Shown piece by piece: positions 17,607 to 41,741 of a stretch of DNA of 64,000 bases. Below the pieces are notes generated by a model. The model was not told the DNA's origin. It saw only the letters and a list, made by a program, of their open reading frames with translations, and searched no databases. The translations under genes and the position numbers were made by a program. The stretch comes from an uncultured Eubacteriaceae bacterium (GTDB lineage: Bacteria; Bacillota; Clostridia; Eubacteriales; UBA1433). The stretch's first letter is position 1; each line of letters begins with the position of its first letter. The DNA lies in the NCBI GenBank assembly GCA_964581565.1, contig CAZOOZ010000008.1:27552-91551 (forward strand), written 5' to 3'.

Positions 17607-17617
17607 CTTTTTACTTT

Positions 17618-24542: not shown

Positions 24543-25700
24543 TTAGAATGGAAGATCATCGTCATTAGATAATGAAATCGACGAAAGTTTAGAAATCATG
24601 TTAGTTAAAATCAATTTTTGTGATTGTTTCGTACAGCCTTTGTACCATTCATAAAATGATTTGACTTCATTATATTTAATCTCCATACGTGAATTGTAAC
24701 GGTAACCTCCCGTAACAATACATCTAATTACATCAGAATTTTGTTGTATTATATCTTCGAAACAATTATCACGGAGCACTTTTTCTAATTTAAATAAAAA
24801 CAGGTCAGTATCGTAATTAAATTTTTTTTCATCAGTATATGAATATAGAGCGTTATAAATACTGTTTGAAAAATTTTTATAGATTCTTTTATCAGCAACT
24901 GGAATATCCAAATTAATAAAATCATCTTTATCAATACTTTCTTTGATTTCAGCAAAAGAATCAAATCTATCATTGGGAGATTTTTCCATCATTTTATTTA
25001 AAAGACTTTGATATGAAAAATCACAATAATCAGGCTCATTCATATTTTTTATTAAACGATTAAACAATTCGGCAACATAAAACATATCTGTCTTAGAAGT
25101 ATAAAAGCCCTTATAATATTCATTAGGTAATGTGTCAGAATTATTTCGATTAATATCTGCAATTAAACTGTCCTCAAAGCTGCTTGGATTTTCAAATATT
25201 TTTCCAATGCCAAAATCAATTATTTTTACATTTCCTGCTTTATCTATTAAAATATTTCCTTCTCGTATATCTCTATGAATGATGCCATGTTCTTCGATAT
25301 ACTGGAATCCGTCAATAAGCTCTATAAAAACTTGATCAAGAGAAGCAATTTTATGCGATGGGGAATAATCGTGTATATACTCGTCTAATTTAACCCCGTC
25401 AATATATTCCATTAAAATGTATCCAGTAAAAATGTTTTGATAAGCGTAATAATTAAATATTCTTACAATGTTTTTGTGATTCAGTTTATGCAGAATTTTA
25501 ATTTCATCAAGGAAGTTTTTAAAAAATTTTTCCTTAATTTCTGTATATTCTGGTTCGTATTTCTTTGCAACAAGAAGCTCCTCTATAAAAGGATCTTGTA
25601 ATAATACAGTTTTTGCAAATGAACCATTGCCTAAATTATCATTTACCATAATATAATCTTTTTGCTTGACAAATTTAATTATATTATCATTTTCTTTCAT
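24543..25700 (-). CDS. Standalone Hanks-type Ser/Thr protein kinase with C-terminal domain and DDDLPF tail
   Basis: LGNGSFA, VAKK, HRDIREGN, DFG; no TM or PASTA; visibly AT-richer than neighbours. Confidence 0.9.
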   Translation of the reverse strand: MKENDNIIKFVKQKDYIMVNDNLGNGSFAKTVLLQDPFIEELLVAKKYEPEYTEIKEKFFKNFLDEIKILHKLNHKNIVRIFNYYAYQNIFTGYILMEYIDGVKLDEYIHDYSPSHKIASLDQVFIELIDGFQYIEEHGIIHRDIREGNILIDKAGNVKIIDFGIGKIFENPSSFEDSLIADINRNNSDTLPNEYYKGFYTSKTDMFYVAELFNRLIKNMNEPDYCDFSYQSLLNKMMEKSPNDRFDSFAEIKESIDKDDFINLDIPVADKRIYKNFSNSIYNALYSYTDEKKFNYDTDLFLFKLEKVLRDNCFEDIIQQNSDVIRCIVTGGYRYNSRMEIKYNEVKSFYEWYKGCTKQSQKLILTNMISKLSSISLSNDDDLPF

Positions 25701-25846
25701 TACTCATTCCACGCTTTCTTGAAATATATACGTTTTATTGAAAATAATTATATCATATAATTTCATTTGAAATATATTTTGGATAGTATAACAATAGTAG
25801 TATTAGATAAAATTTTTATTTTATAAATTATAAAATAAAAGCCAAC

Positions 25847-26515
25847 CTAAAAATCAGCATTTAATATTTCCTTTGACCACCGAAACATCAAATCAAAGTA
25901 AATATCTGTATTCGCCATGATTGTGCTGCTGTAAGCGTTCCAATTGATATTTATAGTCAAAATTTCCCGTTCAGCACCTTCAAGCAGCGGCAGTAATTCT
26001 TTTTTTGTGCAAATATATATGCCGCTGCGCAAGTAGCAAAGAGCCTGCAGAAGAAAAAACGGGCTCTTATACATGCCCTTAATGGCATCGATATCCAGGG
26101 GTGTGTGAACGGCTGCGTGACAGCATGCATGATAAAGACCTGATGCGCTGATCTTTACACTGTCTATAATATCTTTACGCTCTGTATTGGGGAGTAGTGT
26201 ATCGAGTGCACCGTAATATGGAAGCGTATCCTGTTTAAACTGGAACAATTCATACTTGGGCCAGTTTAATAGCTCTTGCCTGCCGCCTATGAAACCGCAT
26301 GCCTTATCGTTTTGCGGCATTGTTGCGAGAATTTTTCTGTAAGCGATGAGGTCGTTCATGGATACTGCATCAAGGATAACCACAGCGTCAATGTCGCTGT
26401 CTTCATGCGCTTCCTGTCTCCGATAGCTTCCCTGCAGCCCTGCAAACAAAAGCCTGTTTTTAAAATGAGCTTTCAATTTATCGGTCAGTTCCGTCATCCA
26501 GTTATCTGCGTTCAT
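25847..26515 (-). CDS. Pol-beta-fold nucleotidyltransferase domain protein
   Basis: GLQGSYRRQEAHEDSDIDAVVILD (GS...DxD). Confidence 0.8.
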   Translation of the reverse strand: MNADNWMTELTDKLKAHFKNRLLFAGLQGSYRRQEAHEDSDIDAVVILDAVSMNDLIAYRKILATMPQNDKACGFIGGRQELLNWPKYELFQFKQDTLPYYGALDTLLPNTERKDIIDSVKISASGLYHACCHAAVHTPLDIDAIKGMYKSPFFLLQALCYLRSGIYICTKKELLPLLEGAEREILTININWNAYSSTIMANTDIYFDLMFRWSKEILNADF

Positions 26516-26585
26516 TATCAGTGTGAGTCCTTTCATAAATGGTTTATCGAGTTATTTTAAATCGCGAGGAAAAGTTATATGAAAT

Positions 26586-27281
26586 CTATCGTCTGACCCA
26601 ACCTTTATCCACCCAGTACTGATTATCGGCTGACAACGTTTCTTCTTTTTTTGTAAATATTCGATGCATTTTCTTTAAAACAAAAAAGAGTAAGCTGACT
26701 TTTATCCCTTTACGTGCTGTGTATGCATCTTTATATCTTTTAGCCAGTTTCTCTGTTTTACGCACAATGATACCCTGCCGTTTATAGGATAGCTCGTCCC
26801 AAAATACTCCTTCCATTAATCCGACGCCCATTTTTTTGATATCGGAGATGCCCAGCCACATCAGGCTGGTTGCTATATCCCTTTGGGCTCCGCCATTGAA
26901 TACGCCGATTGCGTTTGTGAGTATGACGGATTTTTTGGTGAACATTTTTTCATCGGGCCTGTGCACCATCCAATGAACGCACAAATGGTCGAGCAATGCT
27001 TTCATCTGCGCCGTGGTTCTTAATGCGTATACAGGTGAGGCAAAAACAAGCAGATCCGATCCCAGCATTGCATTCCAAATAGGCATGACATATTCCGCGT
27101 GTGCACAGAGCCGTTCGTCTTTTAAAAAACAAGTTTTGCATCCGCGGCAAAAATGAGGACAGTCTTTTGGAAGGTAGAATTCTTTAATTTCGTTACCGTC
27201 ACGTAAAACATCCAAAAAAATCTCCTTTATCCGGTAAGTGCATCCTTTTACCTCGGTACCGTTAATGACTACAATTTTCAC
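26586..27281 (-). CDS. Flavodoxin-like NAD(P)H-dependent FMN reductase / iron-sulfur flavoprotein family
   Basis: MKIVVING, CxxCxxC...C, FASPVY...QMKALLD. Confidence 0.8.
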   Translation of the reverse strand: MKIVVINGTEVKGCTYRIKEIFLDVLRDGNEIKEFYLPKDCPHFCRGCKTCFLKDERLCAHAEYVMPIWNAMLGSDLLVFASPVYALRTTAQMKALLDHLCVHWMVHRPDEKMFTKKSVILTNAIGVFNGGAQRDIATSLMWLGISDIKKMGVGLMEGVFWDELSYKRQGIIVRKTEKLAKRYKDAYTARKGIKVSLLFFVLKKMHRIFTKKEETLSADNQYWVDKGWVRR

Positions 27282-27447
27282 GTATATGCCTCCGTGTTCA
27301 TAATATCAAAGCCGATGCTTTGCAGGATATAAATATAGTCTGAATTATTTGGTTATTATACCATGATTAACAAACCGGTATAAAATTATAAAATTTTTAT
27401 TTTATAAAATAACGGCACATAAAAAACATACAGGATAAAGCTTTGTG

Positions 27448-28254
27448 TTATCTTATTTTTAAATGGATCATCTTTACCATACCGAACACATCGGAGAAAA
27501 GCATCTTAAATTTTGTTGCAAAATGCATTTTAAAACGAAAGCTAACCAAACTGTAAAATTTTCGTTCTTCTATAACTGTTGTCATAGGGGATATCATTGA
27601 GGCGAGGTCTTCGGCAGCATCGGCATAAAAATACATTTTTGCATCTTCTTTGTTCATTTTCTTCATATAGCGCTTCATGCATTTCATACCCATTGAAGAA
27701 ACCGCATCAAAAACGAGCTGTATATCTTCAAAGGCGGCAAGACGTTTTATAAAATCGATCACTTGTGTTTCGCTGAAATAGTAGAACAATCCTGAAGCAA
27801 TCACCATAACAGGCTTTTGCACGGTGTTTTTTACGATATCTATCCATTTATAGTCAAACATTGAATACGGCAGATATCTGTCGCGTCCGCTTTCAGGAAG
27901 ATACTCTTGCCGCAAATGGAGCACTTCGGGCAGGTCCAGCTCAAACCAAAGCGCGCTTCCGTTGTCGTTACGAGTATAGGCTGTTTCAAGGCCGCAACCC
28001 ACATTTATGATAATACCATCGGGGTTTTGGGCTAAAAACGCCTGAATATAATAATCTGTATTTTTGGATCTGACCGCACTGGCAAGCGATGTATACTCGC
28101 TTTGACCCGGCATTTTTTTAATGTTTTCAGGCAGCAACTCTGATAGGGACAAGGCCGCTTTGTCGCACAGGATATCCGGATGGTATCTGGATGCGTAAAT
28201 GCGTCCGAGCAAAGGTATATATAGAGTTTCGGACACTGAATTTAATTCAAACAT
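27448..28254 (-). CDS. Class I SAM-dependent methyltransferase (LCM/TcmP-like)
   Basis: VSETLYIPL, NVGCGLET, ELDLPEV, SGLFYY. Confidence 0.85.
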   Translation of the reverse strand: MFELNSVSETLYIPLLGRIYASRYHPDILCDKAALSLSELLPENIKKMPGQSEYTSLASAVRSKNTDYYIQAFLAQNPDGIIINVGCGLETAYTRNDNGSALWFELDLPEVLHLRQEYLPESGRDRYLPYSMFDYKWIDIVKNTVQKPVMVIASGLFYYFSETQVIDFIKRLAAFEDIQLVFDAVSSMGMKCMKRYMKKMNKEDAKMYFYADAAEDLASMISPMTTVIEERKFYSLVSFRFKMHFATKFKMLFSDVFGMVKMIHLKIR

Positions 28255-28327
28255 CTAAGCTCCTTTCTAAAATCATTATCGATTTGTCATTATAATCTTT
28301 TTATGGAGGAGTATGAAGGCTCTAAAT

Positions 28328-28345
28328 AGTTAGATAAAACTAACT
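28328..28345. promoter_or_regulatory. AGTTAG-N6-CTAACT operator (site 1)
   Basis: AGTTAGATAAAACTAACT just downstream of minus-strand TTGACA-16-TACTAT promoter. Confidence 0.7.
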
Positions 28346-28462
28346 ATTATCATAGTATCTGTTTATTCTTGTTTGTCAATAGTTGAATATGCTTTTTAAT
28401 ATGGAGGCATATATAAATGATATATCTATAAATTGATTGTTTTTTCTGTTTTTATAAAATAA

Positions 28463-28510
28463 TTGCATTACGAATCAGCATATATTATAATAAGGTTGGT
28501 GGCTGTACCA
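28463..28510 (+). promoter_or_regulatory. sigmaA promoter with FadR-type operator
   Basis: TTGCAT-17-TATAAT then TGGT-N6-ACCA (28497-28510). Confidence 0.6.
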
Positions 28511-28528
28511 CTAAAATAGGAGCATGAT

Positions 28529-29245
28529 ATGGAAAACAACTTTACAAAAATTGAAATGAAAAGTCTGCGCGCACAGGCATCCTATGAAATAGAACGAAAA
28601 ATATTTTCCGGCGAGCTGAAACCTGGTGACCGCCTTCCTCCTGAACGGGAATTGGCGGCAGCCATGGGGATCAGCCGTGCGGTGTTGAATTTTGCTATTC
28701 GCGATCTTGAGGCAAAAGGTTTTGTGAAGATCGTGCCGCGGCGCGGGGCATACATAAACGATTATAAACAAAAAAGTACACCGCAGATGCTGCTTTCTCT
28801 TATAAAGCATAGTACGGAGAATGTTGATTTTACTTTGTTTAGTGATATGCTCGATACGAGGCGGCTACTGGAAAGTGAATGCACGCGTTTGGCAGTGGAA
28901 CGAATAACAAATGAGGAGCTTGATGTATTGCGTGCTTGCCTAAATGATATGAAAACATGCAGCACGGCGGAGTCTTTTGCAAAAGCGAATTACAGATTCC
29001 ATCACACACTCACCATGGCTTCGGGTAATATCGTCTACGCAATGATTCTTCGCTCTTTTGAAGATGCGATCCACTGGTATTTGAAAGCATATTTTACTAC
29101 GGATAAAAAACGCAGTATTTCCTGCAGGCAGCATGAAGGATTGCTGGATGCTCTCGCACACAGGGACTGTGATGTGGCAGAGAAAGCAATAAGTGCAATC
29201 TTTTGTGAAGGAATAGGCGGACTCAGAGAAATATTTAAACCATAA
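28529..29245 (+). CDS. GntR/FadR-family regulator (FCD domain)
   Basis: LKPGDRLPPERELAAAMGISR; RRLLE; FHHTLTMASGN. Confidence 0.92.
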   Translation: MENNFTKIEMKSLRAQASYEIERKIFSGELKPGDRLPPERELAAAMGISRAVLNFAIRDLEAKGFVKIVPRRGAYINDYKQKSTPQMLLSLIKHSTENVDFTLFSDMLDTRRLLESECTRLAVERITNEELDVLRACLNDMKTCSTAESFAKANYRFHHTLTMASGNIVYAMILRSFEDAIHWYLKAYFTTDKKRSISCRQHEGLLDALAHRDCDVAEKAISAIFCEGIGGLREIFKP

Positions 29246-29302
29246 TCAAACCCTCGGCAGGCTTGTATGCCCGCAGGGGGTTTTTATTATAAGGAGGTAT
29301 GA

Positions 29303-30847
29303 ATGGATAGGGGATTATTTAATGAACGCTATGACGCAATCGTAATCGGCAGCGGTATGGGTGGGCTTGCTGCCGGATGCAATCTTGCCAGATGTGGGTT
29401 AAAGCCGCTCGTGCTGGAAAAGCACAATCTGCCGGGCGGTGTAACCACGAGTTTTGTACGCGGCCGTTTTGAGTTTGAGATCTCTGTGCAGTGCATCACG
29501 GAATACGGCAACATTGAAGGAATGGGACCTATATATAAATTCTTTCATGACGAGCTGCAGCTTGACCTTCAGTTTCCAGAAATGAGAGAAGGCCGCTTTT
29601 TTTCTATGCAGGACAAAAACTTAAAGACAGTGCTGCCGCTCAAAAAGGAAGAGCTTATTGCATTTATCGATAAGTGCGTGCCGGGAAGTGCCGAGCCCGT
29701 TCGGGAGTATCTTAATTTTTGCGATGAGATGCTCATAGCCATCAATTACATCAACGATAATGATGCACATATTAAACCGATGGAATTGATCAGAAAGCAT
29801 AAGGGCATCGTGGCCGCGTCAGGCCTAACGGTCAAAGAAGTGACGGATAAATTCAAAATTCCAAAGGAAGCACTCGATCTGCTCGATATCTACTGGACTT
29901 TTACGGGTCTTCCCATGGATGCTATGTCCTTTCCCGTCTACGGAACGGTGCTCTCATGCATGGCTTCCACGCCTGTCTATGCGCCCCATAAAACCACGTT
30001 TGAAATTTCCGCAAAAATGGCGGAAAGGCTCACGCAGCTTGGCGGGCAGATCGCTTACAACACCCGTGTGGACAAAATTCTCGTAGAAAATGGTGCGGTT
30101 AAGGGTGTGGTTACCAACCGGAGAGAAATTATTAAAACGGAGAATATCTACTCCAACGCTCTTCCCCATAACGTATTTTGTAACCTCATCGATAAAGATG
30201 ATCTACCCCTAAAGGCATTGAAGCAATTGAATATGCGTGTACCGGGCACAAGTTTCTTGAGCCTGTATATGGGTCTGGATCAAAGCTATGAACAGTTGGG
30301 GCTTGATCATTACATGTATTACTTTGCAAAAGACGGCGATATCAACCGCGCTTATCAGCAGATGGAATATCTGAAACCGAGTCAATACTTCGCCGGCATG
30401 TGCCCCAACCCGCTGATACCGGATGCCTCGCCCGAGGGAACATCTATACTGCATTTGGAAACACTGACGAAATCTTCTGCGTGGTTGCCTGTAACACAGG
30501 AAGAATACTATAAGACAAAATGTGAGCTGGCAGCTGCATTGATCGACCAGGCAGCCGAAAGCTTAAACATTCCCATTCGGGATCATATCGAGGAAATCGA
30601 AGTCTGTGCACCGCATACCTTTGCGCGCTACATCGGCTCCTTTATGGGTAATGTATACGCATACGATCACCGCGTATTCGACTCCGTGGTCATTAAAGCC
30701 ATGACGCAGGAAAAAGAGCGCCTCATACGCGGACTTTCTTTTGTAGGGAATGCCGGCCTGCTGATTGCGGGATTTCCCAGTTCTATTTTATCCGGCAAAC
30801 TGGCTACCATCGAACAAATCGAAGAATGCAAAAAGGGGGTGTGCTGA
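29303..30847 (+). CDS. Phytoene-desaturase/RetSat-family FAD oxidoreductase (copy 1)
   Basis: VIGSGMGGL, EKHNLPGG..TSFVRGRFEFE, IEEIEVCAPHTFARY. Confidence 0.85.
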   Translation: MDRGLFNERYDAIVIGSGMGGLAAGCNLARCGLKPLVLEKHNLPGGVTTSFVRGRFEFEISVQCITEYGNIEGMGPIYKFFHDELQLDLQFPEMREGRFFSMQDKNLKTVLPLKKEELIAFIDKCVPGSAEPVREYLNFCDEMLIAINYINDNDAHIKPMELIRKHKGIVAASGLTVKEVTDKFKIPKEALDLLDIYWTFTGLPMDAMSFPVYGTVLSCMASTPVYAPHKTTFEISAKMAERLTQLGGQIAYNTRVDKILVENGAVKGVVTNRREIIKTENIYSNALPHNVFCNLIDKDDLPLKALKQLNMRVPGTSFLSLYMGLDQSYEQLGLDHYMYYFAKDGDINRAYQQMEYLKPSQYFAGMCPNPLIPDASPEGTSILHLETLTKSSAWLPVTQEEYYKTKCELAAALIDQAAESLNIPIRDHIEEIEVCAPHTFARYIGSFMGNVYAYDHRVFDSVVIKAMTQEKERLIRGLSFVGNAGLLIAGFPSSILSGKLATIEQIEECKKGVC

Positions 30848-30848
30848 T

Positions 30849-32060
30849 ATGTCGAAGGTAAAACTCATTCCGGGATTATTCGCTTTGATGCGCATGGCAC
30901 GTATACGTAAAGAACGAATAGAGCAGACTGAGGCTACATATTGCCCTGATCCGATCGGTGAGGTGGCAAAGCAGATGCACCCGGATTTTTTGTCGCTTGC
31001 GGTGCACAGCATAGCAGAGGAAAACGATAGTGTACGCACGTATCGGCTTGTCTGTGCAAAGGATGATGCATCGCTGCCGGTGTTTCAGGCAGGGCAGTAT
31101 ATTTCCGTAAAGCTATCTATCGGGCAGACGCAAAGCAGCCGTGCATATACAATTTCGTCCGCACCGTATGAGGCCGAAGGGGAAAACGGATATTACGAAA
31201 TCACAGTCAGAAAAAAACCGGGAGGTTTTGTAAGCGGTTATCTGTTCGACAACTGGAAAGCAGGCACGAAAATTTATGCTACGGGGCCGCATGGAGATTT
31301 TTATTACTGTCCGCTGCGTGATCATAAAGATATCGTTGCACTGGCGGGCGGTGCGGGAATCACGCCGTTTAGAAGTATGATAAAACAGTTTGCCGTAAGA
31401 GAGAAAGAACTCACTCTCACGTTACTGTATGGCTGCAAAGACGATAAAGACGTATTGTTTGAAAAAGAGCTTGATGAGCTCATAAAAAAAGAGCCCGGTC
31501 GTTTTCACCGTGTCAATACTTACGAGGCTGCTCCTCAGGGAGAGTGCCAGGGTTATCTTGACGCAAAATTTATTAATGAAAATATACAAAATCCGCAGGA
31601 TAAAACCTTCTTCATTTGCGGGCCCGCCGTGATGTATGAATTTCTGAGAAGCGAATTCCCAAAAGTAGGAAATCTGAGACGCAAACAGCTTCGATTCGAG
31701 GTAGGCGGTGCGCCGGATGACGTAACGAAAAGAAAAGATTGGCCTAAAGAAGCAAAAGCGAAAACAGTGCAGCTCGCAGTGCATATCGGTAATCTCAGCT
31801 ATGATATTCCCGCCGGCACCACCGAGAGTATATTAGCTAGCATTGAACGCGCGGGGCTGCTGCTTGATTCCCGCTGCCGCAGCGGTGAATGCGGCATCTG
31901 CCGTTCAAAGCTTAACAGCGGTGATGTCTTTATAATACCGGATAACGACGGCCGGCGTGCGGTGGATAAGCAGCTGGGCTATATCCATCCGTGCTCTACT
32001 TATCCGCTCAGCGACTGTTGTGTTATTATTCCGCCACCAAACCCTGTTAAAGACAGGTAA
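30849..32060 (+). CDS. FNR-type FAD/NAD(P)H reductase with C-terminal 2Fe-2S (copy 1)
   Basis: AGQYI, RAYTISS, AGGAGITP, FICGP, CRSGECGIC...HPC. Confidence 0.88.
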   Translation: MSKVKLIPGLFALMRMARIRKERIEQTEATYCPDPIGEVAKQMHPDFLSLAVHSIAEENDSVRTYRLVCAKDDASLPVFQAGQYISVKLSIGQTQSSRAYTISSAPYEAEGENGYYEITVRKKPGGFVSGYLFDNWKAGTKIYATGPHGDFYYCPLRDHKDIVALAGGAGITPFRSMIKQFAVREKELTLTLLYGCKDDKDVLFEKELDELIKKEPGRFHRVNTYEAAPQGECQGYLDAKFINENIQNPQDKTFFICGPAVMYEFLRSEFPKVGNLRRKQLRFEVGGAPDDVTKRKDWPKEAKAKTVQLAVHIGNLSYDIPAGTTESILASIERAGLLLDSRCRSGECGICRSKLNSGDVFIIPDNDGRRAVDKQLGYIHPCSTYPLSDCCVIIPPPNPVKDR

Positions 32061-32179
32061 AGTCAATTAAAATGCAGAAAATGGTAAGACAGCGAAGAGG
32101 TTAGCAAGAAGCACATTATCATTTCGTCCTATATAAAAACATTTTATAAAAAATAAAAATAATAAAAAAGGAGGAAAAT

Positions 32180-33745
32180 ATGAGCGATTATCAATTTAGC
32201 CGGGAGGCTGATGCCGTCGTCATAGGCGCTGGCAACGGAGGTTTGGCGGCGGGTGCGGTTCTTGCGAAAAACGGCTTAAAACCACTTGTTTTAGAAAAAC
32301 ACAGTTCGCCGGGAGGCTTCGCCTCAAGCTTTGTGCGCGGCCGGTTTGAGTTTGAAACGGCACTGCACGTGCTTGCCGATTATGGTCCGGCAAATAACCG
32401 CGGTAATCTTGGGTTGTTTTTCGACGAGCTGGGGCTGGACGTAGAATTTGTGGAAGTGCCCGAGGCATATCGGCTTATTACAACACACGATCCAGAAGGA
32501 AATTTGGATGTTGTGATGCCGATGGGTGTTGAAGCTTATATTGACAAGATGGAAGAAATTGTGCCGGGTTCGCGTGAAAGCGTGACGAAATACATGTTAC
32601 TCAGCAAGGAAGTCTACGAGGCGCTGGCATATTTGGGCAAAAACAAGGGCAATGTGGATAAAAGCGTTCTGCTCAATGAATATGGAAACTTTGTGCGTAC
32701 CTGCGCGGCTTCGCAGCAGCAAGTGCTTGATGCGCTGAAAATGCCTATGAGAGCTCAGCGTATTCTGAACGCTTACTGGACATATCTCGCTGTAGATATG
32801 CAGCGAATCAATTTTACGATATTCGGCGTTATGATTTATGTTCTTCTTGAAAAGAGTGCGTATGTGCCAAAAATGCGTTCGCACGAGATATCTATGGCGC
32901 TTGAGCAGAAGATAAGAGAATTTGGCGGCATAGTAGAGCTCAACAGTGAGGTAGAGCATATTTTAATTGAAAACGGAAATGTGGTAGGGGTTAAGACCAA
33001 AAGAGGTGAATACATAAAGACGTCGCAGGTGGTAGCCAATATGTCCGAGCATATGGTTTATTCAAATCTCTTGCATCCCGCAGTCGAAATACCGCCTCGC
33101 TGTTATCAGCTTGCCAACGCACGCATAATGGGTGCGAGCGCAATGGTCGTTTATCTGGGACTTAATAAAAGCGCGCAGGAACTGGGTATTACGGAATATG
33201 AATATTTAATTTATGACAGTATGGACACACCCGATATTTATAAATCGTTCGATACGCGCGGACGCACGAAAGCGCAGGCCACGGCGTGTTTGAATCTTGC
33301 TGTGCCGGACTGTTCACCGCCCGGTACCTGCATTATCTCGTTTACGGTGCTCAATCAGGGCGATCGATGGGCAGCTGTGACACCCGAGGTTTACCACCAA
33401 GAAAAAGAACGAATTGCAGAAGAGATTTTAGGAGAGTTTAAACTGGCTACCGGCATCGACCTAATACCGTATATTGAAGAAATAGAGATAGCCACACCGG
33501 CCACATTTGCCAATATTAACCGTAAATATAACGGCAGCATTTACGGTTACGAGTGTGTAGACTGGGATTCGTTGATTCCCAAAACAATGACTATTCAAGA
33601 CGAAGATGAAAATCTTATCAAAGGGCTGCGTTTCGTCGGCGGATTTTCTCGCCGGTCACAGGGATTTTCAAGCTCCTATATGACGGGAGAATTGGCGGGA
33701 CGACTGACTGCCGCCAAATGGAAGGAGGAAAATAAAAATGTCTGA
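32180..33745 (+). CDS. Phytoene-desaturase/RetSat-family FAD oxidoreductase (copy 2)
   Basis: VIGAGNGGL, EKHSSPGGFASSFVRGRFEFE, IEEIEIATPATF. Confidence 0.85.
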   Translation: MSDYQFSREADAVVIGAGNGGLAAGAVLAKNGLKPLVLEKHSSPGGFASSFVRGRFEFETALHVLADYGPANNRGNLGLFFDELGLDVEFVEVPEAYRLITTHDPEGNLDVVMPMGVEAYIDKMEEIVPGSRESVTKYMLLSKEVYEALAYLGKNKGNVDKSVLLNEYGNFVRTCAASQQQVLDALKMPMRAQRILNAYWTYLAVDMQRINFTIFGVMIYVLLEKSAYVPKMRSHEISMALEQKIREFGGIVELNSEVEHILIENGNVVGVKTKRGEYIKTSQVVANMSEHMVYSNLLHPAVEIPPRCYQLANARIMGASAMVVYLGLNKSAQELGITEYEYLIYDSMDTPDIYKSFDTRGRTKAQATACLNLAVPDCSPPGTCIISFTVLNQGDRWAAVTPEVYHQEKERIAEEILGEFKLATGIDLIPYIEEIEIATPATFANINRKYNGSIYGYECVDWDSLIPKTMTIQDEDENLIKGLRFVGGFSRRSQGFSSSYMTGELAGRLTAAKWKEENKNV

Positions 33746-34955
33746 TAAATTAAAAATTAAAATCAAGCCACTGGCATTTATGGACCTGCTGGCATTTAAA
33801 AACCTGATACCCAAACGAAAAAAAATGTTTGAGAACGCCTCTGTTGTATGTCCCGAGGCGAAACCGGTCGTCAATGAGTTGGCAAGGCGCTTGCATCCCA
33901 TAAGGCAATATATGACGATAGCGGAAGTCATAGATGAGACGCCTGACGTGAAAAGCTTCAAACTCAAAGCGGATATTGCCCGGCAAACAAGCGAGCTTGC
34001 TGTGTTTCGCGCAGGACAATATTTATCTGTGAAATTAAACGTGGAAGACGAACATATAACCCGTCCGTATTCCATTGCATCTTCGCCTAAGGAAGCGCAG
34101 GAAGGGTATTACAGGCTGACAATCAAGCGCGCCGCGTTCGCTACGGATTATCTATGGGGAAACTGGAAAATCGGAGCTCAAATAGAGACATCAGGGCCGG
34201 AAGGTCAGTTTTATTACACGAGGCTGCGCGATATGCCACACATTGTAGGCATTGCCGGCGGCAGCGGAATCACGCCGTTTTTAAGCATGATGAGTGACTT
34301 TGAAGATAAAGGATGGCTCGTGAATTTCACGCTGTTCTACGGCTGTAACTGTGCAGGTGATATTGTCTGCCGTAAACAGATTGACCAAATTGCAGAAAAC
34401 AGTAAAGGAAAGCTCAAAGTGGTATATATCATGGCCAAAGAAGAGCCCGAGGAGAATATGGAGAAGGGATTTATAACAGCAGAGCTGATCAAAAAATATG
34501 TGCAACCCGAACTATGCAGCTTCTTCATTTGCGGTCCGCAGGCCATGTATACATTTATCAACAAGGAGCTTGCTCAGTTCTCTCTGCCGCTCAAGCAGCT
34601 GCGTTATGAAGTTTTTGGAGAAGCCAAGAATGTTGCCGCAATGGAAGACTATCCGCAAAACGTGCCCGACAGCTTTACAATAAAGGCTGTATATCGGGAA
34701 GAGACGAAGAAAATACCCGCTTTCTCAAGAGAATCCGTGCTGGTGGCAATGGAACGTGCCGGCTTTGCACCGCCATCCAAGTGCCGTAGCGGGCAATGTG
34801 CATTCTGCCGAACACGGCTGATTTCGGGGGATGTGTATGTGCCGTCTTCATCCGATGACAGGCGAAATGCAGATAAAAAATTTGGTATCATACATGCGTG
34901 TTCCTCATATCCGTTAAGTGATTTAGTGATCGAAGTGCCTCATGATGAAGTGTGA
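33738..34955 (+). CDS. FNR-type FAD/NAD(P)H reductase with C-terminal 2Fe-2S (copy 2)
   Basis: AGQYL, RPYSIAS, AGGSGITP, FICGP, CRSGQCAFC...HAC; overlaps upstream stop. Confidence 0.88.
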   Translation: MSDKLKIKIKPLAFMDLLAFKNLIPKRKKMFENASVVCPEAKPVVNELARRLHPIRQYMTIAEVIDETPDVKSFKLKADIARQTSELAVFRAGQYLSVKLNVEDEHITRPYSIASSPKEAQEGYYRLTIKRAAFATDYLWGNWKIGAQIETSGPEGQFYYTRLRDMPHIVGIAGGSGITPFLSMMSDFEDKGWLVNFTLFYGCNCAGDIVCRKQIDQIAENSKGKLKVVYIMAKEEPEENMEKGFITAELIKKYVQPELCSFFICGPQAMYTFINKELAQFSLPLKQLRYEVFGEAKNVAAMEDYPQNVPDSFTIKAVYREETKKIPAFSRESVLVAMERAGFAPPSKCRSGQCAFCRTRLISGDVYVPSSSDDRRNADKKFGIIHACSSYPLSDLVIEVPHDEV

Positions 34956-35006
34956 GAGAGTATAAATAGTTCATAACTCAATGAAAGTTCAAAATTTATG
35001 TAAAAT

Positions 35007-35035
35007 AAAGGCCGGTCTTATTGATCCGGTCTTTT
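35007..35035 (+). terminator. Terminator ending the oxidoreductase operon
   Basis: AAAGGCCGG...CCGGTCTTTT. Confidence 0.65.
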
Positions 35036-35086
35036 GATGTGCGCGAATACTTTTTAACCTTAAATTGCAGATACTGTAAAAAGCTA

Positions 35087-35135
35087 TTGACAAATACAGT
35101 CAGGGATATTAAACTAAAGTTAGTTAAAACTAACT
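35087..35135 (+). promoter_or_regulatory. sigmaA promoter with AGTTAG-N6-CTAACT operator (site 2)
   Basis: TTGACA-17-TAAACT then AGTTAGTTAAAACTAACT at 35118-35135. Confidence 0.72.
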
Positions 35136-35384
35136 AAATAATGTCGTTATTAATTCAAGTCGGTTAATAAAAAAAAGAATTATCGTTTGATACATCAAAA
35201 GAAAGTAATGAAAAAATTTTTTACAAAAACATCATTAGAAAGTATAACTCGATTTTGTATAGTTTTTATCCAACAATTATAGAAGAGAATGTCTTCTTTA
35301 AAATATAAAGCCGAAAAGCTATTCTTTAAAATGCCGAATATAGTTGATTAGGTTCAGTTTAAGTTTTTAGGAGGATGAAGAAGT

Positions 35385-37169
35385 ATGACAAAAGAAAAAA
35401 AAATAAATATTTTAAAAAGGTTTACCCCCTATATGGGTACAAAGAAAGGTCTTCTTCCTTTGTCGTTAGTGCTGTCAGGAATTTCTGCAGTTCTCAATAT
35501 TTTGCCTTTTGTGCTTGTATGGTACATAACACGTGATATATTATCAGATCCGCAAGCAATTGATTTTTCAAAAGTTCATTTTTATGCGTGGCTTGCCTTT
35601 GCAAGCGCGATAGGAGGAATAGTAGCATATTTTTGTGCGCTTATGAGCTCGCATCTTGCGGCCTTTCGTGTAGAGGTTGGAATGCAAAAAGTCGGTATGG
35701 AAAAAATATTATCTATGCCGCTTGGTTTTTTTGATTTGAATTCGAGCGGAAAAATACGAAAAATCGTCAATGACGGAGCAGGGACGACGCATACATTTTT
35801 AGCACACCAACTCCCTGATATGGCAGGCAGTATTGTCTCCCCCGTTATTTTAATCGCGCTAATTTTTACTTTTGATTGGCGAATGGGGCTGGCTTCTCTC
35901 GTCCCTATTATTTTGGGGTTTATAACCATGAAGTTTATGACAAGTACCAAAGGCAGACAGTTTCAGAAAAATTATTTTGATTCATTAGAGGAAATGAGCT
36001 CTGAATCCGTAGAATATGTGCGAGGAATCCCGGTAGTTAAAACTTTTGGTCAAACAATATTTTCTTTTAAACGATTCTATAACAGCATCATCAAATATAA
36101 AGAGATGGTTCATGCGTATACGCTTCTTTGGCAAAAACCGATGTCTTTTTATACTATTATTATGCAGTCGGCCACATTCTTTTTGATCCCTATGGCAATT
36201 CTTTTGATTGGAAGAGGAGAAAATCTCGTCATTGTGCTTGCGGATTTTGTCTTTTATATTCTGATATCTCCTATCTTTACTATCCTTTTAATGAAATCGA
36301 TGTATTTTCAGCAAAACGCAATGATTGCAGAGCAAGCAATTGACAGGATAGATAACCTTCTTGATTATCCTATGATGAGCTACAGCAAAAATATAAAAAA
36401 CATTAACAATCATAGTTTGGAGTTCAAAAATGTCGTTTTTTCATATGAGGGAAGCGGCAAACGTGCTATTGATAACATCAGTTTTAAGTTAAACGAAGGA
36501 GAAACAATTGCGCTTGTTGGGGCTTCAGGAGGAGGAAAAACAACAATTGCACGACTGGCTGCACGCTTTTGGGATGCAGATGAAGGAGAGATATTAATCG
36601 GAGGAGTAAACGTTAAAGATATTCCTCAAAAAGAACTAATGGATAATATTTCTTTTGTTTTTCAAAGTACTAAGCTGTTTAAAGGCTCATTAAGAGACAA
36701 TATAGTTTTTGGAAAAGAAAATGTTGGAGACGAAGAGCTGAATAAAGCAATTGATTTTTCACAGTCAAGAGAGATCATAGAAAATCTATCTAATGGAATT
36801 AATACAGTAATCGGTTCAAAAGGAACTTATCTTTCAGGCGGAGAACAACAAAGAATTGCGCTTGCCAGAGCAATTGTAAAAAATGCTCCAATCGTACTCT
36901 TGGATGAAGCCACTGCTTTCGCGGATCCCGAAAATGAACACTTAATCCAAAAAGCTTTGAAAGAACTCAGCCGCGGAAAAACAACTCTCATGATTGCGCA
37001 TCGGCTTACAAGCGTACAAAACGTTGATAGAATTCTTGTTATAAAAAGCGGGAAAATCACGGAGGAAGGAACGCATAAGGAACTATTAAACAAAGACGGA
37101 CTCTATAAAACGATGTGGGATGAATATCAACAATCTGTCATATGGAAAATCAATGCAAAAGATGCTTAA
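35385..37169 (+). CDS. ABC transporter fused TMD-NBD, subunit A (IrtA/YbtP-like heterodimer)
   Basis: 6 TM; LAHQLPD, EYVRGIPVVK; GASGGGKT, LSGGE, LLDEATAFADPENE. Confidence 0.88.
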   Translation: MTKEKKINILKRFTPYMGTKKGLLPLSLVLSGISAVLNILPFVLVWYITRDILSDPQAIDFSKVHFYAWLAFASAIGGIVAYFCALMSSHLAAFRVEVGMQKVGMEKILSMPLGFFDLNSSGKIRKIVNDGAGTTHTFLAHQLPDMAGSIVSPVILIALIFTFDWRMGLASLVPIILGFITMKFMTSTKGRQFQKNYFDSLEEMSSESVEYVRGIPVVKTFGQTIFSFKRFYNSIIKYKEMVHAYTLLWQKPMSFYTIIMQSATFFLIPMAILLIGRGENLVIVLADFVFYILISPIFTILLMKSMYFQQNAMIAEQAIDRIDNLLDYPMMSYSKNIKNINNHSLEFKNVVFSYEGSGKRAIDNISFKLNEGETIALVGASGGGKTTIARLAARFWDADEGEILIGGVNVKDIPQKELMDNISFVFQSTKLFKGSLRDNIVFGKENVGDEELNKAIDFSQSREIIENLSNGINTVIGSKGTYLSGGEQQRIALARAIVKNAPIVLLDEATAFADPENEHLIQKALKELSRGKTTLMIAHRLTSVQNVDRILVIKSGKITEEGTHKELLNKDGLYKTMWDEYQQSVIWKINAKDA

Positions 37170-37179
37170 GGAGGAGAAA

Positions 37180-38913
37180 ATGATTAAGTATTTTCAAAAT
37201 AAATATGCCATGTCTGAACAAGGAGTGAAAGACCTGATTCGCTCCATTATTTGGACGGTCATTATGGATATCAGCTTTATGATTCCGGTTATTTTCGGCT
37301 TTAAATTCTTGGATGAACACTTGACCACATTACTAAATGCTTCAAACAGCTCGGGAAGCAGTGTTCTCTATTATATAATCATGGCTCTGGCCGCTTTGCT
37401 GGTCATGTTTGTAATTGCTTATTTCCAGTATGATTCGACTTATACCAGAATTTACGAAGAAAGCGCAAGGAGAAGAATTAGCCTGGCTGAAACATTAAGA
37501 AAGTTGCCATTAGCTTTTTTCGGCAAAAAGGATATTGCCGACTTAAGTGCGACAATCATGGAAGATGCCACACAAATTGAACAACAATTTTCCCATTCTG
37601 TACCTCAAATTTTTGCGTCGGCAGTGACCATTTTTATCATGGGTGTAATAATGTTCATTTATAACTGGCAGTTATCCCTTGCTGTATTCTGGGTTGTTCC
37701 GGTTGCACTTTTGGTTTTTTATCTGTCGAGAAAATTTCAAAATAGTATGCATACAAAGCTCTATCATGTAAAAAGAGATATTTCAGATAATATTCAAGAA
37801 GAGCTCGATTCAATTTATGAGATAAAATCCTATAATAGAGAAGAGGATTTTTCAAGTAGTTTTAATACAAAGCTGGATAATTATGAAAAGTTTTTGATTA
37901 AAGGTGAACTGTTACTCGGTGCGTTGATCAACGTTTCCTATGTGATATTAAAGCTGGGGCTGCCCAGTGTGATACTGGCGGGCGCGTATCTTTTGGCAAA
38001 CGGATCGGTTAGTATATTTGCGTACCTTGTATTTCTTGTCGTAACGGCACGTATTTATAATCCAATCATGGATGCGATGAATAACTTAGCACTTCTTCTG
38101 TTTCTCAATGTTCGCATTAACCGCATGAAAGAGATGGATCAAATGCCAAGACAGGATGGAAGAACTGAGTTTAATCTTAATAATTATGATATTGAATTCA
38201 AAAACGTCGATTTTTCATATCAAAATGGGGTACAAACGTTAAAGAATGTTAGTTTTACGGCAAAACAAGGCGAAGTGACTGCGCTTGTAGGACCTTCTGG
38301 CGGCGGAAAGAGTACAGTGGTCAAGTTGTCTGCGCGTTTCTGGGATATAGATAAAGGGCTCATCACCTTGGGCGGAGAAGATATCTCCCGAATTGATCCT
38401 GAAATTCTTCTGAATAATTTTTCAATTGTTTTTCAGGATGTAATACTCTTTAATTCAAGTGTCATGGATAATATCCGCCTTGGAAAGAAAGATGCGCCTG
38501 ATGAAGAAGTAATGAAGGCGGCGTATCTTGCGCAATGCGATGAGTTTGTAAGAAAACTTCCGCAAGGATATGATACATTGATCGGCGAAAACGGCGAAAG
38601 ATTATCAGGAGGTGAAAGACAGCGTATATCCATTGCCAGAGCCATACTCAAGGACGCGCCAATTATCCTGCTTGATGAGGCTACGGCATCTCTTGATGCG
38701 GAAAATGAGAGTAAAATTCAAAGAGCCCTTAGCGAGCTTATTAAAAACAAAACTGTTTTGATTATTGCTCATCGTATGAGAACAGTTTCAGGTGCCGATA
38801 AAATTGTTGTTATTAAAGATGGTGCTATCGCAGAGGCAGGCGCGCCTCGGGTGCTAAAAGAAAAACAAGGAATATTTGCATCTATGGTAAAAACACAATA
38901 TCAAAATAATTAA
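37180..38913 (+). CDS. ABC transporter fused TMD-NBD, subunit B (IrtB/YbtQ-like)
   Basis: RISLAETLRKLPLAFF; GPSGGGKS, LSGGE, LLDEATASLD; start 37180 after AAGGAGG. Confidence 0.88.
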   Translation: MIKYFQNKYAMSEQGVKDLIRSIIWTVIMDISFMIPVIFGFKFLDEHLTTLLNASNSSGSSVLYYIIMALAALLVMFVIAYFQYDSTYTRIYEESARRRISLAETLRKLPLAFFGKKDIADLSATIMEDATQIEQQFSHSVPQIFASAVTIFIMGVIMFIYNWQLSLAVFWVVPVALLVFYLSRKFQNSMHTKLYHVKRDISDNIQEELDSIYEIKSYNREEDFSSSFNTKLDNYEKFLIKGELLLGALINVSYVILKLGLPSVILAGAYLLANGSVSIFAYLVFLVVTARIYNPIMDAMNNLALLLFLNVRINRMKEMDQMPRQDGRTEFNLNNYDIEFKNVDFSYQNGVQTLKNVSFTAKQGEVTALVGPSGGGKSTVVKLSARFWDIDKGLITLGGEDISRIDPEILLNNFSIVFQDVILFNSSVMDNIRLGKKDAPDEEVMKAAYLAQCDEFVRKLPQGYDTLIGENGERLSGGERQRISIARAILKDAPIILLDEATASLDAENESKIQRALSELIKNKTVLIIAHRMRTVSGADKIVVIKDGAIAEAGAPRVLKEKQGIFASMVKTQYQNN

Positions 38914-39256: not shown

Positions 39257-39904
39257 TTACGCAAAGCCCTTTGACATATTTGCCATGCAATCCTTATAAA
39301 GCTCTCCGGCTTGTTTCCAATTTGCTACATTGAACCAATCATCGATATAGGCTGCCCGCTCATTGTAATGTTTTAAATAATACGCATGTTCCCAAACATC
39401 AATGGCCGCAACGGGACAAAGATTCTGAACAATAGGCGTATTTTGATTGGCCGATGTGACAATTTTGAGCTTCCCGCTCTGGTCCACGACAAGCCATGCG
39501 TATCCCGAGCCGAACACAGATAGTGCCTGCTTTTTAAACGCGTCGTAAAAGTCTTCGACAGACCCAAAATCCTGTACGATTGCATTATAAAGCATCCCGG
39601 CCTGTGAACGTATCTCCAAATTAGACATGCCGTTAAAATAGAAGATGTGGTTATAAACTCCGCCGCCGTTATTAATGACAGACTGCCGGATGGCTACCGG
39701 AAGTCTGTCCGCGTTATAGATCAACTCTTCAAGCGACCAGTTGTGCAGATCCGGATAGTCTTTCAATGCGCTATTGAGATTGTTGACATATGTTTGCAGG
39801 TGCCGGTCGTGATGTAAATGCATCGTTTTTGTATCGATATACGGTTCAAGTGCATCGTAAGCATAAGGAAGGGGTGGATTTACAAATGGATAATGCTCAT
39901 TCAT
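39257..39904 (-). CDS. sod: Fe/Mn superoxide dismutase
   Basis: LPYAYDALEPYID, HHDRH, NNGGG..NH, FGSGYAWL, DVWEHAYY. Confidence 0.95.
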   Translation of the reverse strand: MNEHYPFVNPPLPYAYDALEPYIDTKTMHLHHDRHLQTYVNNLNSALKDYPDLHNWSLEELIYNADRLPVAIRQSVINNGGGVYNHIFYFNGMSNLEIRSQAGMLYNAIVQDFGSVEDFYDAFKKQALSVFGSGYAWLVVDQSGKLKIVTSANQNTPIVQNLCPVAAIDVWEHAYYLKHYNERAAYIDDWFNVANWKQAGELYKDCMANMSKGFA

Positions 39905-40369: not shown

Positions 40370-40425
40370 TTGTATTTTTTACTGAAAAGTGGTAAAATAT
40401 ATCACAAGGTTAGAATTAGCTAACT
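40370..40425 (+). promoter_or_regulatory. sigmaA promoter with GGTTAG-N6-CTAACT operator (site 3)
   Basis: TTGTAT-17-TAAAAT then GGTTAGAATTAGCTAACT at 40408-40425. Confidence 0.62.
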
Positions 40426-40526
40426 ACAATCTGTTTTTTGCGGCAGTGATTAATTCAGTCTGTGAAAAATTATTTTTTTCTATATGCTATGCGTTGAATA
40501 AAATTTTATTAAAGGAAGATAACATC

Positions 40527-41741
40527 ATGTATTGTGTAAGACAAATTACTCCCCAAGTATTCTGGGTAGGAGGAAACGACCGGAGACTTGCGCTGTTTGA
40601 GAATATGTTTCCTCTGCCGAACGGCATCGCCTATAATTCGTATCTAATCATGGATGAAAAGGTGGCGCTGATGGATACAGTTGATTCTTCGATCACTCGC
40701 CAGTTTTTGGAAAATATCGAGCATGTGCTCGATGGCAGAGCCATCGACTATCTTATCGTGAACCACATGGAGCCGGACCATTGTGCCAACATTGAGGAAC
40801 TCTGCCGGCGGTATCCTGAAATGAAGATTGTCGGCAATCAAAAAACCTTTCAGATGATCCGCCAATTTTATGATTTCGATATTGAATACAGCACCTTGGA
40901 GGTGCATGAAAAAGATACCCTAAATCTTGGCGTGTATACTCTGCGTTTCTTTTTTGCTCCCATGGTTCACTGGCCGGAGGTAATGTTTAGCTATGAAGAA
41001 CACAAAGGGATTCTTTTTTCGGCCGATGCGTTTGGCTCCTTTAGCGCTCTTCCCGGTGATCTTTTTGCCGACGAATTGGATTTTGAAGGGGCTTTTCTCG
41101 ACGAGGCGCGCCGTTACTATACCAATATCGTTGGTCGATACGGCGCACAGGTACAAGCGGCACTAAAAAAGTTGTCTGGTACGGAAATCCGTTTACTTTG
41201 TCCCTTGCATGGCCCGATCTGGCGCAAAAATTTAAATTATATTTTGTCTAAATATGACCTGTGGAGCCGGTATCAACCGGAAAAGCGAGGTGTTGTTGTA
41301 GCCTATGCTTCCATGTACGGCAATACGGAGAATGCGGTGACTGTGATTGCGAATCATTTGGCGGAAAAGGGCGTGCAGGATATGCGGGTATATGACATTT
41401 CCAAGACACACGCTTCGTATGTCATTGCAGATGCGTTCAAATACAGCCATTTGATACTCGCCGCACCCACCTATAATTCCGGACTCTATTTCGGTATGGA
41501 AGCGCTCTTGAGGGATATGACGGTACTCAACCTGCAAAATCGGAAGGTCGCCTTGGTTGGAAACGGCTCCTGGGCACCGGCGTCGCAAACCATCATGCAG
41601 AAGATGATTGGTGAAATGAAGTATATGGAACTGCTCACGCCGCCGCTGGTTCTGCGTTCATCGCTGAAGACTGTTCAGATGGCAGAACTTTTAAAATTTG
41701 TGGATACCGTAAGCGAGTCCATCTTGCGCCCGATAGTTTAA
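40527..41741 (+). CDS. fprA: Flavodiiron protein (FprA/A-type flavoprotein)
   Basis: YNSYL, NHMEPDH, MVHWPE, FSADAFG, PLHGP, YASMYGNT flavodoxin domain. Confidence 0.92.
   Translation: MYCVRQITPQVFWVGGNDRRLALFENMFPLPNGIAYNSYLIMDEKVALMDTVDSSITRQFLENIEHVLDGRAIDYLIVNHMEPDHCANIEELCRRYPEMKIVGNQKTFQMIRQFYDFDIEYSTLEVHEKDTLNLGVYTLRFFFAPMVHWPEVMFSYEEHKGILFSADAFGSFSALPGDLFADELDFEGAFLDEARRYYTNIVGRYGAQVQAALKKLSGTEIRLLCPLHGPIWRKNLNYILSKYDLWSRYQPEKRGVVVAYASMYGNTENAVTVIANHLAEKGVQDMRVYDISKTHASYVIADAFKYSHLILAAPTYNSGLYFGMEALLRDMTVLNLQNRKVALVGNGSWAPASQTIMQKMIGEMKYMELLTPPLVLRSSLKTVQMAELLKFVDTVSESILRPIV

Follow-up and report, generated by a model that had tools for sequence, protein, structure and literature searches.

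A conserved two-component flavoenzyme of two lineages under a FadR-like regulator, probably a lipid C=C reductase, in an uncultured Eubacteriaceae bacterium

What reaction is carried out by two pairs of redox proteins that stand in tandem behind a single regulatory gene in the genome of an uncultured Eubacteriaceae bacterium? The question is raised by a stretch of 64,000 nucleotides of contig CAZOOZ010000008.1 (assembly GCA_964581565.1, positions 27,552 to 91,551; the whole of this stretch is called the window below), in which five open reading frames (ORFs), R, A1, B1, A2 and B2, follow one another in the same direction on the + strand. R is a regulator of the GntR type, the two A proteins are flavoproteins of the CrtI superfamily, and the two B proteins are reductases with an iron-sulphur domain. 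Comparison with related loci indicates that A and B together make up a genuine two-component flavoenzyme, conserved and uncharacterised, which is represented here by two lineages under a FadR-like regulator and which probably reduces lipid C=C bonds. The five genes, by position in the window, are:

28529-29245, + strand: R, regulator with a GntR winged helix and an FCD domain, FadR subfamily (ORF list, Pfam)
29303-30847, + strand: A1, CrtI-superfamily FAD protein of 514 aa, divergent lineage (Pfam, NCBIfam, AF2 model, tree)
30849-32060, + strand: B1, FNR-type FAD/NAD(P)H reductase with a C-terminal plant-type [2Fe-2S] domain, 403 aa (Pfam, alignment)
32180-33745, + strand: A2, CrtI-superfamily FAD protein of 521 aa, Bacillota lineage (Pfam, A1/A2 comparison, tree)
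33738-34955, + strand: B2, FNR/[2Fe-2S] reductase of 405 aa (Pfam, B1/B2 comparison, tree)

An earlier note on this DNA had described a fadR-type gene followed by A1-B1-A2-B2, with tight coupling inside each pair, and the five co-directional ORFs are confirmed at these positions: A1 and B1 are separated by 1 bp, and A2 and B2 overlap by 8 bp. The start of B1 was set at the ATG at 30849 because 31 aligned homologues start with the same MSKVK and AAGGGGG precedes this ATG; the program-made ORF list had put the start at a TTG at 30765. The G+C content of the operon is 0.43-0.48, compared with approximately 0.36-0.40 in its flanks. The host genome (2.29 Mb in 17 contigs, 100% complete) contains two A genes and two B genes, all of them in this operon.

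Relatives of A were sought in one genome per species, and the best 80 of 543 matches, which make up 78 loci, were analysed. A homologue of B directly adjoins A in 76 of the 78 loci (tblastn), in hosts that range from Bacillota, Spirochaetes and Syntrophaceae through to Asgard archaea; at the other two loci, L024 and L071, the contig ends just past A, and in three Syntrophaceae loci B precedes A. Clustering of the 700 ORFs in these loci that are 90 aa or longer left A (72 loci) and B (73 loci) as the only widely shared proteins; a GntR regulator (8 loci) came next, and every other cluster was found in six loci or fewer. Pairwise distances of A and of B across 72 adjacent pairs are correlated with r = 0.949, a value equalled in none of 999 permutations and partly confounded with the relatedness of the species, and the tree of B mirrors that of A. 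All 15 of the longer homologues (915-951 aa) are fusions of A and B, 14 in the order B-A and one in the order A-B. In the fusion P0241, B occupies residues 9-398 and is joined by a linker of approximately 18 residues to A at residues 417-924, P0255 has the opposite order, A then B, and locus L015 encodes a B-A fusion of 916 aa. Both orders being found, fusion is indicated to have happened at least twice. The earlier note had proposed that A and B work together and had named their co-occurrence as a check; the adjacency, the correlated distances and the fusions all agree with that proposal, and they indicate that the A-B pair is one conserved functional unit.

Each half of the pair is recognizable at the level of domains and falls short of every named family with which it was compared. 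A1 and A2 are 36% identical across 502 residues (E 2e-100) and have in common the motif LEKH..PGG...SFVRGRFEFE; B1 and B2 are 37% identical (E 1e-90). The earlier note had likewise seen motifs shared within A and within B in copies that were clearly diverged. In Pfam, the PF13450 FAD-binding domain is matched by A1 and A2 at 42.5 and 44.6 bits, together with weak full-length matches to Amino_oxidase, and all 16 aligned A sequences keep the FAD-motif residues G16, G20, G21 and E39. The carotenoid isomerase, crtI_fam and CrtD models of NCBIfam are matched nearly end to end, with scores of approximately 91-126 bits against cut-offs of 238-640. For crtI_fam (TIGR02734, cut-off 238.1 bits) A1 scores 91.4 and A2 94.5, and for the CrtISO/CrtH equivalog of carotenoid isomerases (TIGR02730, cut-off 586.9 bits), which is the best NCBIfam match of A1, the scores are 125.9 and 82.8, so that both proteins are below both thresholds. 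A profile built from 16 A members found only two full-length matches in the PDB, CrtD (4rep, 1e-31, positions 11-509) and CrtI (4dgk, 1e-24). The AF2 model of A1 (pLDDT 85.4, pTM 0.86) gave CrtD 4rep as its top Foldseek match (E 1.3e-25, TM 0.74/0.77), followed by plant PDS, CrtI, NicA2 and amine oxidases. Identity to solved members of the CrtI superfamily is 14-18%. Residues R148, D149 and R152 of Pantoea ananatis CrtI fall on weakly conserved l, v and k columns of the A profile, in a helical region where the alignment is uncertain. Database names of A homologues are generic ("phytoene desaturase family", "prolycopene isomerase"), and those in the ESM Atlas are equally so. These comparisons place A in a distinct subfamily of the CrtI superfamily (COG1233), outside the curated crtI_fam. 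Neither A nor B has an Oxidored_FMN, nitroreductase, NMO or SDR domain in Pfam, as found in OYE/2,4-dienoyl-CoA reductase, CLA-ER and FabK/FabI.

In B1 and B2, Pfam finds FAD_binding_6, NAD_binding_1 and a C-terminal Fer2 domain, in this order. Among 31 aligned B sequences, the four [2Fe-2S] ligands C343, C348, C351 and C382 are invariant in all 31, R98 and Y100 of the R-x-Y-[ST] flavin motif vary little if at all, and a family-specific N-terminal extension of approximately 50 residues contains invariant R20 and H44-P45. The layout of FAD (or FMN), NAD and C-terminal [2Fe-2S] domains is that of the Class IA/PDR-type reductases PaaE, Hcr, BenC, GbcB and phthalate dioxygenase reductase. B differs from these oxygenase reductases in its extra N-terminal segment and in having a flavoprotein as its partner, instead of a Rieske, di-iron or hybrid-cluster protein, and its scores against the PaaE, Hcr, BenC and GbcB equivalogs of NCBIfam (125-134 bits) reach none of the cut-offs (383-430). 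The earlier note had found no oxygenase genes nearby, and the Pfam scan of the window and of the neighbours of A-B at related loci agrees: no Rieske, di-iron or PaaABC oxygenase genes were found.

Several known systems resemble the pair in part. CrtI, CrtD, PDS and CrtISO are like A in fold, in full-length profile similarity, in the N-terminal FAD motif and in a GG...F.F[DE] motif that we take to be common to the whole CrtI superfamily. RetSat, a vertebrate C=C reductase of the CrtISO clade, is a precedent for the saturation of an isolated lipid double bond by this clade; it is eukaryotic and membrane-bound, and we know of no dedicated Fe-S partner described for it. For carotenoid desaturases the acceptor is described as O2 or quinones (PMC3382138); A, by contrast, is served by an NAD(P)H/[2Fe-2S] partner of its own. 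The nearest known system is the limonene dehydrogenase CtmAB of Castellaniella defragrans with CtmE, a [2Fe-2S] ferredoxin, and CtmF, an NADH:ferredoxin oxidoreductase (PMC4109377); the delta-24 sterol desaturase of Sterolibacterium denitrificans is a relative of CtmAB (PMC11061730). Like A, CtmAB is a COG1233 flavoenzyme with genetic ties to a [2Fe-2S] carrier and to a flavoreductase linked to NAD(H), and it acts without O2 on a hydrophobic substrate that bears an alkene, as is proposed for A-B. Unlike Ctm, the A-B pair combines ferredoxin and reductase in one protein, B, and has one A per B instead of a heterodimer of two COG1233 paralogues; its direction is proposed to be reductive, and its hosts are strict fermenters, syntrophs or Asgard archaea. 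A motif for covalent flavin binding through histidine, G-F-[LR]-x-[NS]-[TL]-H-A, is common to CtmAB and the delta-24 desaturase (PMC11061730). In its strict form this motif was found in none of 80 A sequences, and in a looser form in none of the 80 within the first 120 residues. It is by the described motif and layout that A is set apart from CtmA and CtmB.

The earlier note had read the operon as two tandem, diverged copies. Divergence is evident, but the copies are not simply local ones. In the A tree (79 rows, from a quick search), A1 belongs to a long-branch clade of seven, made up of the window and L005-L010, that is grouped with Spirochaete, Syntrophaceae and Bdellovibrionota sequences, and A2 is placed with L009 copies inside a Bacillota group. 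In the B tree (36 rows, from a chosen subset of 32 diverse loci), B1 falls in a clade of six with support 100, the sister of which is the Spirochaete/Syntrophaceae group (support 97). A1-B1 is thus assigned to the Spirochaete/Syntrophaceae lineage and A2-B2 to a Bacillota lineage, and the trees indicate an old split of the module into these two lineages, not a recent duplication. L008 and L009 repeat the order R-A1-B1-A2-B2, as L006 and L007 apparently do. Within the class the module is patchy, being found at E <= 1e-60 in 11 of 300 sampled genomes and 9 of 177 genera. A genome of the same genus, G066, has a third A (A2'; locus L083, G066:C2 8401-9957) that is 81% identical to A2 and lies between B1 and A2, giving the gene order R A1 B1 A2' A2 B2 with no B of its own for A2'; the same is seen in L009 (8879-10444).

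The regulatory features of the operon, all on the + strand, are:

28463-28491: promoter-like TTGCAT-17 nt-TATAAT before R, found by eye and unlisted by the scan; the -35 hexamer matches at 3 of 6 positions
28497-28510: candidate operator TGGTGGCTGTACCA, a TGGT-N6-ACCA palindrome 6 nt past the -10 hexamer (pattern count, related loci)
29248-29283: imperfect stem-loop between R and A1, with 15-nt arms that are 80% complementary
35010-35040: possible weak intrinsic terminator 3' of B2, GGCCGG...CCGGTC followed by TTTT, found by eye and missed by the scan, which had a loop limit of 8

R scores 88.6 bits for FCD, 64.5 for GntR and 54.5 for FadR_C in Pfam. The name fadR that the earlier note had given it stands as far as the GntR and FCD domains and the Pfam FadR_C threshold are concerned, but not at the level of NCBIfam, where R lies far below the FadR equivalogs (NF003444, 80.6 bits against a cut-off of 189; TIGR02812, 77.8 against 249.2). 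Its scores are below every NCBIfam cut-off, with NanR, LldR and GlcC scoring as well or better and PdhR similarly. Relatives of R in the PDB include, among others, the FadR-like protein Rv0494 (3.8e-15) and Escherichia coli FadR (7.8e-13). R is thus best described from its domains as FadR-like at the level of the subfamily.

By eye, a TAGGAG ribosome site stands downstream of the candidate operator and before R. By count alone the TGGT-N6-ACCA pattern is weak (two in the window, 0.49 expected). The earlier note had proposed the site at 28497-28510 as an operator, and the same or a nearly identical site was found before orthologous operons:

L009: site identical to TGGTGGCTGTACCA of the window, in the promoter region of the operon
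L008 and L081: TGGTGGCCATGCCA, the L081 copy lying within the divergent R-A spacer
L013 (of the culturable Natronincola peptidivorans DSM 18979) and L018: TGGTGGTTATACCA and TGGTGGTTGGACCA, upstream of A, with R downstream in both loci
L010: TGGTAGTACCA, with a shorter spacer
L027: 12-nt core identical to the operator of the window

No clear copy was found at L005 or at L007, where R is at the edge of the contig. The putative operator TGGTGG..(A/G)CCA is kept before the operon across families, and this conservation ties R to the A-B operon. The all-helical FCD/FadR_C domain of R and its TGGT...ACCA-type palindrome amount to an architecture and operator of the FadR type. The stem-loop at 29248-29283 may attenuate read-through. 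No riboswitch was found by Rfam within 27000-36000.

The substrate was approached through genomic context. Phytoene/squalene synthase (PF00494) is missing from the entire host genome, which is complete (control genomes matched), and from the 46 window ORFs scanned, and no carotenoid genes were found among 135 scanned neighbour ORFs of related loci. The earlier note had reported no crtE or crtB in the window and had named homologues inside carotenoid clusters as a ground for refutation; both lines lead to the same result. Since the genome is without PF00494, carotenoid synthesis by the locus of this organism is excluded on genomic grounds. A link to fatty acids, also put forward in the earlier note, is present in relatives. 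In the Syntrophaceae loci L012 and L028, a co-directional operon starts with genes for an acyl-CoA synthetase, an enoyl-CoA hydratase and a FadE-like acyl-CoA dehydrogenase, continues with B and A, and ends with an NMO/FabK-like gene, an enoyl-CoA hydratase and a second acyl-CoA dehydrogenase. An enoyl-CoA hydratase gene lies beside the fusion in L015, and L025 has an acyl-CoA dehydrogenase gene. In the Spirochaetaceae locus L041, the genes for A, B, DegV (FakB), FakA and PlsY form a tight row, and FakB-FakA-PlsY is a route by which exogenous fatty acids are taken into phospholipid. The loci with fatty-acid neighbours belong to the lineages nearest to A1-B1. The host genome of the window has five DegV/FakB genes and one FabF, and no oleate hydratase was found in it. 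Its acyl-CoA dehydrogenases number just two, both short, which makes beta-oxidation an unlikely role for the pair in this organism, and the likely substrates here are scavenged fatty acids, not beta-oxidation intermediates. All sequencing runs that contain this DNA are labelled as sludge metagenomes, and no RNA run is among those listed.

Other recurrent neighbours of the pair are an aldehyde dehydrogenase (five loci), a GFO/IDH/MocA oxidoreductase (three) and a GH3-type adenylating enzyme (three). At L058 and L072 (3434-10487), and also at L040 and L065, genes for an aldehyde dehydrogenase, a GFO/IDH/MocA oxidoreductase, A, B and a GH3-family adenylating enzyme stand in a row; this row, seen in some gut Clostridia and Acutalibacteraceae, hints at an acid/aldehyde lipid pathway. 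At the Asgard loci L016 (529-4451) and L029 (1740-5695), genes for a PFL-like glycyl-radical enzyme of 988 aa and its activase lie just upstream of A-B on the opposite strand; this cluster was found in three loci and is perhaps mere synteny of close relatives.

The reading preferred here, to which an even chance is given, is that A-B reduces C=C bonds of long-chain unsaturated fatty acyl substrates as a two-component enzyme dependent on NAD(P)H. What follows is our inference as to how the electrons flow, which reaction takes place on which substrate, what R binds and how the two pairs share the work. A hydride from NAD(P)H would be taken up by the FNR-type FAD of B, from which single electrons would pass through the C-terminal [2Fe-2S] cluster to the FAD of A, and the reduced flavin of A would then saturate a double bond of a long, hydrophobic chain. 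As substrate, a long-chain unsaturated fatty acid of exogenous origin, or the same acid once activated, would be the most probable. The two pairs may differ in the position or geometry of the bond or in the form of the substrate that they accept, for example in successive steps from 18:2 to 18:1 to 18:0. R would repress the operon at TGGTGGCTGTACCA until a lipid-derived ligand binds to it. The organism would gain by detoxifying unsaturated fatty acids that it scavenges or by using them in membrane tailoring, and would have an electron sink besides. The alkene/alkane couple lies at approximately 0 to +30 mV and NAD at -320 mV; an NAD(P)H-linked partner in a fermenter therefore favours only reduction. 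A role of B as electron donor is further suggested by its domain order, which is that of the NAD(P)H reductases PaaE, Hcr, BenC and GbcB, and by the lack of an oxygenase partner nearby.

Several observations weigh against this fatty-acyl reductase. Neighbours of the fatty-acid type were found by blastp in just 6 of the 78 loci, and most gut loci lie amid unrelated glycosidase or transport genes. The closest named profile relatives of A are the reduced-FAD isomerase CrtISO (125.9 bits) and desaturases. The regulator, FadR-like as it is, is not assignable to FadR itself, and the host genome has just the two short acyl-CoA dehydrogenases. Asgard hosts have membranes of isoprenoids, not of fatty acyl chains. 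CtmAB/EF, the one CrtI-family enzyme known to have genetic ties to a [2Fe-2S] ferredoxin and a ferredoxin reductase, works oxidatively (PMC4109377).

The same two-component reductase might act on a substrate other than a fatty acid, such as an isoprenoid chain or another hydrophobic alkene; candidates are a polyprenyl, a quinone side chain, an archaeal lipid precursor, squalene, or a dietary carotenoid or retinoid (compare RetSat). That every full-length profile or fold match of A is a carotenoid enzyme, that a clade of 15 Asgard sequences has the pair (one locus having it in tandem), and that 72 of the 78 loci are without fatty-acid context are all in keeping with such a substrate. It is nevertheless judged unlikely: the genome is without phytoene/squalene synthase, the only informative operons are those of fatty-acid activation, beta-oxidation and Fak-PlsY, and R resembles FadR, E. 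coli FadR and Rv0494 being two of its relatives in the PDB. Alternatively, A could be an isomerase or hydratase of lipid double bonds that works by reduced FAD without net redox change, B serving only as an activator that keeps the flavin of A reduced. Carotenoid isomerase tops the NCBIfam matches of A1, and by the title of a 2015 paper of Mori, a CrtI homologue is said to make hydroxyarchaeol. CrtISO catalyses a non-redox reaction for which its FAD must be reduced, and under anoxia CrtI with reduced FAD acts as an isomerase as well (PMC3382138). Strict co-inheritance, translational coupling and frequent fusion of the partner, however, seem more in keeping with a stoichiometric supply of electrons than with activation now and then, and this non-redox role, though a serious rival, is considered unlikely.

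Electron flow in the opposite direction, with A as an O2-independent dehydrogenase, desaturase or allylic hydroxylase comparable to CtmAB and the delta-24 sterol desaturase and with B removing the electrons, is very unlikely in our estimate. It could draw on the presence among the fold matches of A1 of NicA2, an enzyme that passes its electrons to a protein acceptor, and on the clustering of the COG1233 enzyme CtmAB with CtmE and CtmF, ctmE mutants being unable to grow on limonene (PMC4109377). The A sequences, however, are all without the covalent-flavin motif of these enzymes (0 of 80), most loci have one A per B and no A/A' heterodimer, and, as far as an uncertain alignment allows, the proposed acid/base residues of CrtI (R148, D149, R152) would fall at unconserved columns. 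C-H oxidation with NAD+ would also be strongly uphill, and the hosts would be fermenters or syntrophs, not denitrifiers. As for A being a desaturase of carotenoid or pigment biosynthesis with B as an incidental neighbour, a role that the database names "phytoene desaturase family" and "prolycopene isomerase" would suggest, it is refuted as far as sequence allows and is given almost no credence: PF00494 is missing from the genome, the crtI_fam scores are 91-94 bits against 238, the 135 neighbour ORFs include no carotenoid genes, and B is a constant and sometimes fused partner.

On the preferred reading, the fatty-acyl reductase, the net reaction would be one that is already known. The CLA reductase of Butyrivibrio fibrisolvens (Hughes 1982 and Fukuda 2007, as cited in PMC4478896) is reported to use NADH and substrate 1:1 and to be membrane-associated but non-integral (PMC4478896), and the net reaction proposed for A-B matches its own, the NADH-dependent saturation of an unsaturated C18 fatty acid. 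A 2015 analysis looked in vain in KEGG, COG and Pfam for the Butyrivibrio reductase, of which a sequence had been reported (PMC4478896), and biohydrogenation reductases are described as less well characterised than the isomerases (PMC13188719). Another system that saturates fatty-acid C=C bonds is CLA-HY/DH/DC/ER of Lactiplantibacillus plantarum (PMC13365329); CLA-ER acts on an enone formed by hydration and oxidation, and is unlike A-B in chemistry and in family. The earlier note had allowed that similar pairs might already be described in rumen or gut Clostridia, and none came to light: the literature search found no work on a pair of CrtI-family and FNR/[2Fe-2S] proteins other than Ctm, the CLA reductase sequence (Fukuda 2007) not being compared, and NCBIfam (June 2026) has no model for the A-B pair. 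Two further candidates were set aside, the "ladderane" CrtI homologues of anammox bacteria (PMC4790861) and the 10-methylene reductases BfaA/TmpA (PMC7791843), for which nothing was found that bears on the A-B family.

The surroundings of the operon hold other features. After it, at 35385-38913, lies a pair of MsbA/CydCD-like ABC exporter half-transporters that is syntenic in G066 of the same genus and not in other loci. The exporter pair was rejected as part of the system, having a promoter-like site of its own and synteny limited to G066; a link to lipid export is possible. A palindrome TAGTTA-N(4 or 8)-TAACTA occurs exactly twice in the window, at 28327-28346 and 35121-35136 (0.02 expected; none of 100 shuffles reached two), one copy being in the divergent spacer between a methyltransferase gene and R and the other just past the promoter-like site at 35087-35115 of the exporter genes. 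These palindromes, which bracket the operon, may be the operator of another regulator. Divergent from R at 26586-28254 (- strand) are genes for an NADPH-dependent FMN reductase and an LCM/TIGR00027-type SAM methyltransferase, syntenic only within the genus.

Farther away, the region 48010-51701 (G+C approximately 0.30) encodes a protein of the rRNA adenine dimethylase family, an AriA/GajA/AbiL-like AAA ATPase of 565 aa and an HD-domain protein without a PADLOC match, and may hold an anti-phage pair. The lowest G+C content in the window (0.276) is at 24543-26536, where the gene for a Ser/Thr kinase that matches the PD-T4-6 and mad6 defence models lies beside a nucleotidyltransferase gene. A Crp-family regulator gene lies beside that of a hybrid-cluster (prismane) protein at 16944-19469, the latter approximately 11 kb upstream and in another unit; these two and the genes at 39257-39904 (superoxide dismutase) and 40389-41741 (flavodiiron-like protein) resemble the usual equipment of an anaerobe against oxidative and nitrosative stress.

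The hydrogenation by anaerobes of unsaturated fatty acids shapes milk fat and meat fat, the toxicity of fatty acids and the flow of electrons in digesters, and it also affects the lipid signals that pass from gut microbes to their host. As a conserved, self-sufficient and sometimes fused unit, A-B is a directly testable gene candidate for the biohydrogenation step. A wider proposal, offered tentatively and regarded as doubtful, is that the A-B module is the long-missing biohydrogenation reductase: a soluble or membrane-peripheral enzyme, with electrons passing from NAD(P)H by way of [2Fe-2S] to FAD, that would saturate isolated or conjugated bonds of free long-chain fatty acids, that would have spread by gene transfer among anaerobes of digester, rumen and gut and Asgard archaea, and the two lineages of which would carry out successive steps under a lipid-sensing FadR-like repressor. 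If true, the saturation of lipid double bonds by A-B would be a new reductive mode for the CrtI superfamily, and R with its operator could serve as a lipid sensor.

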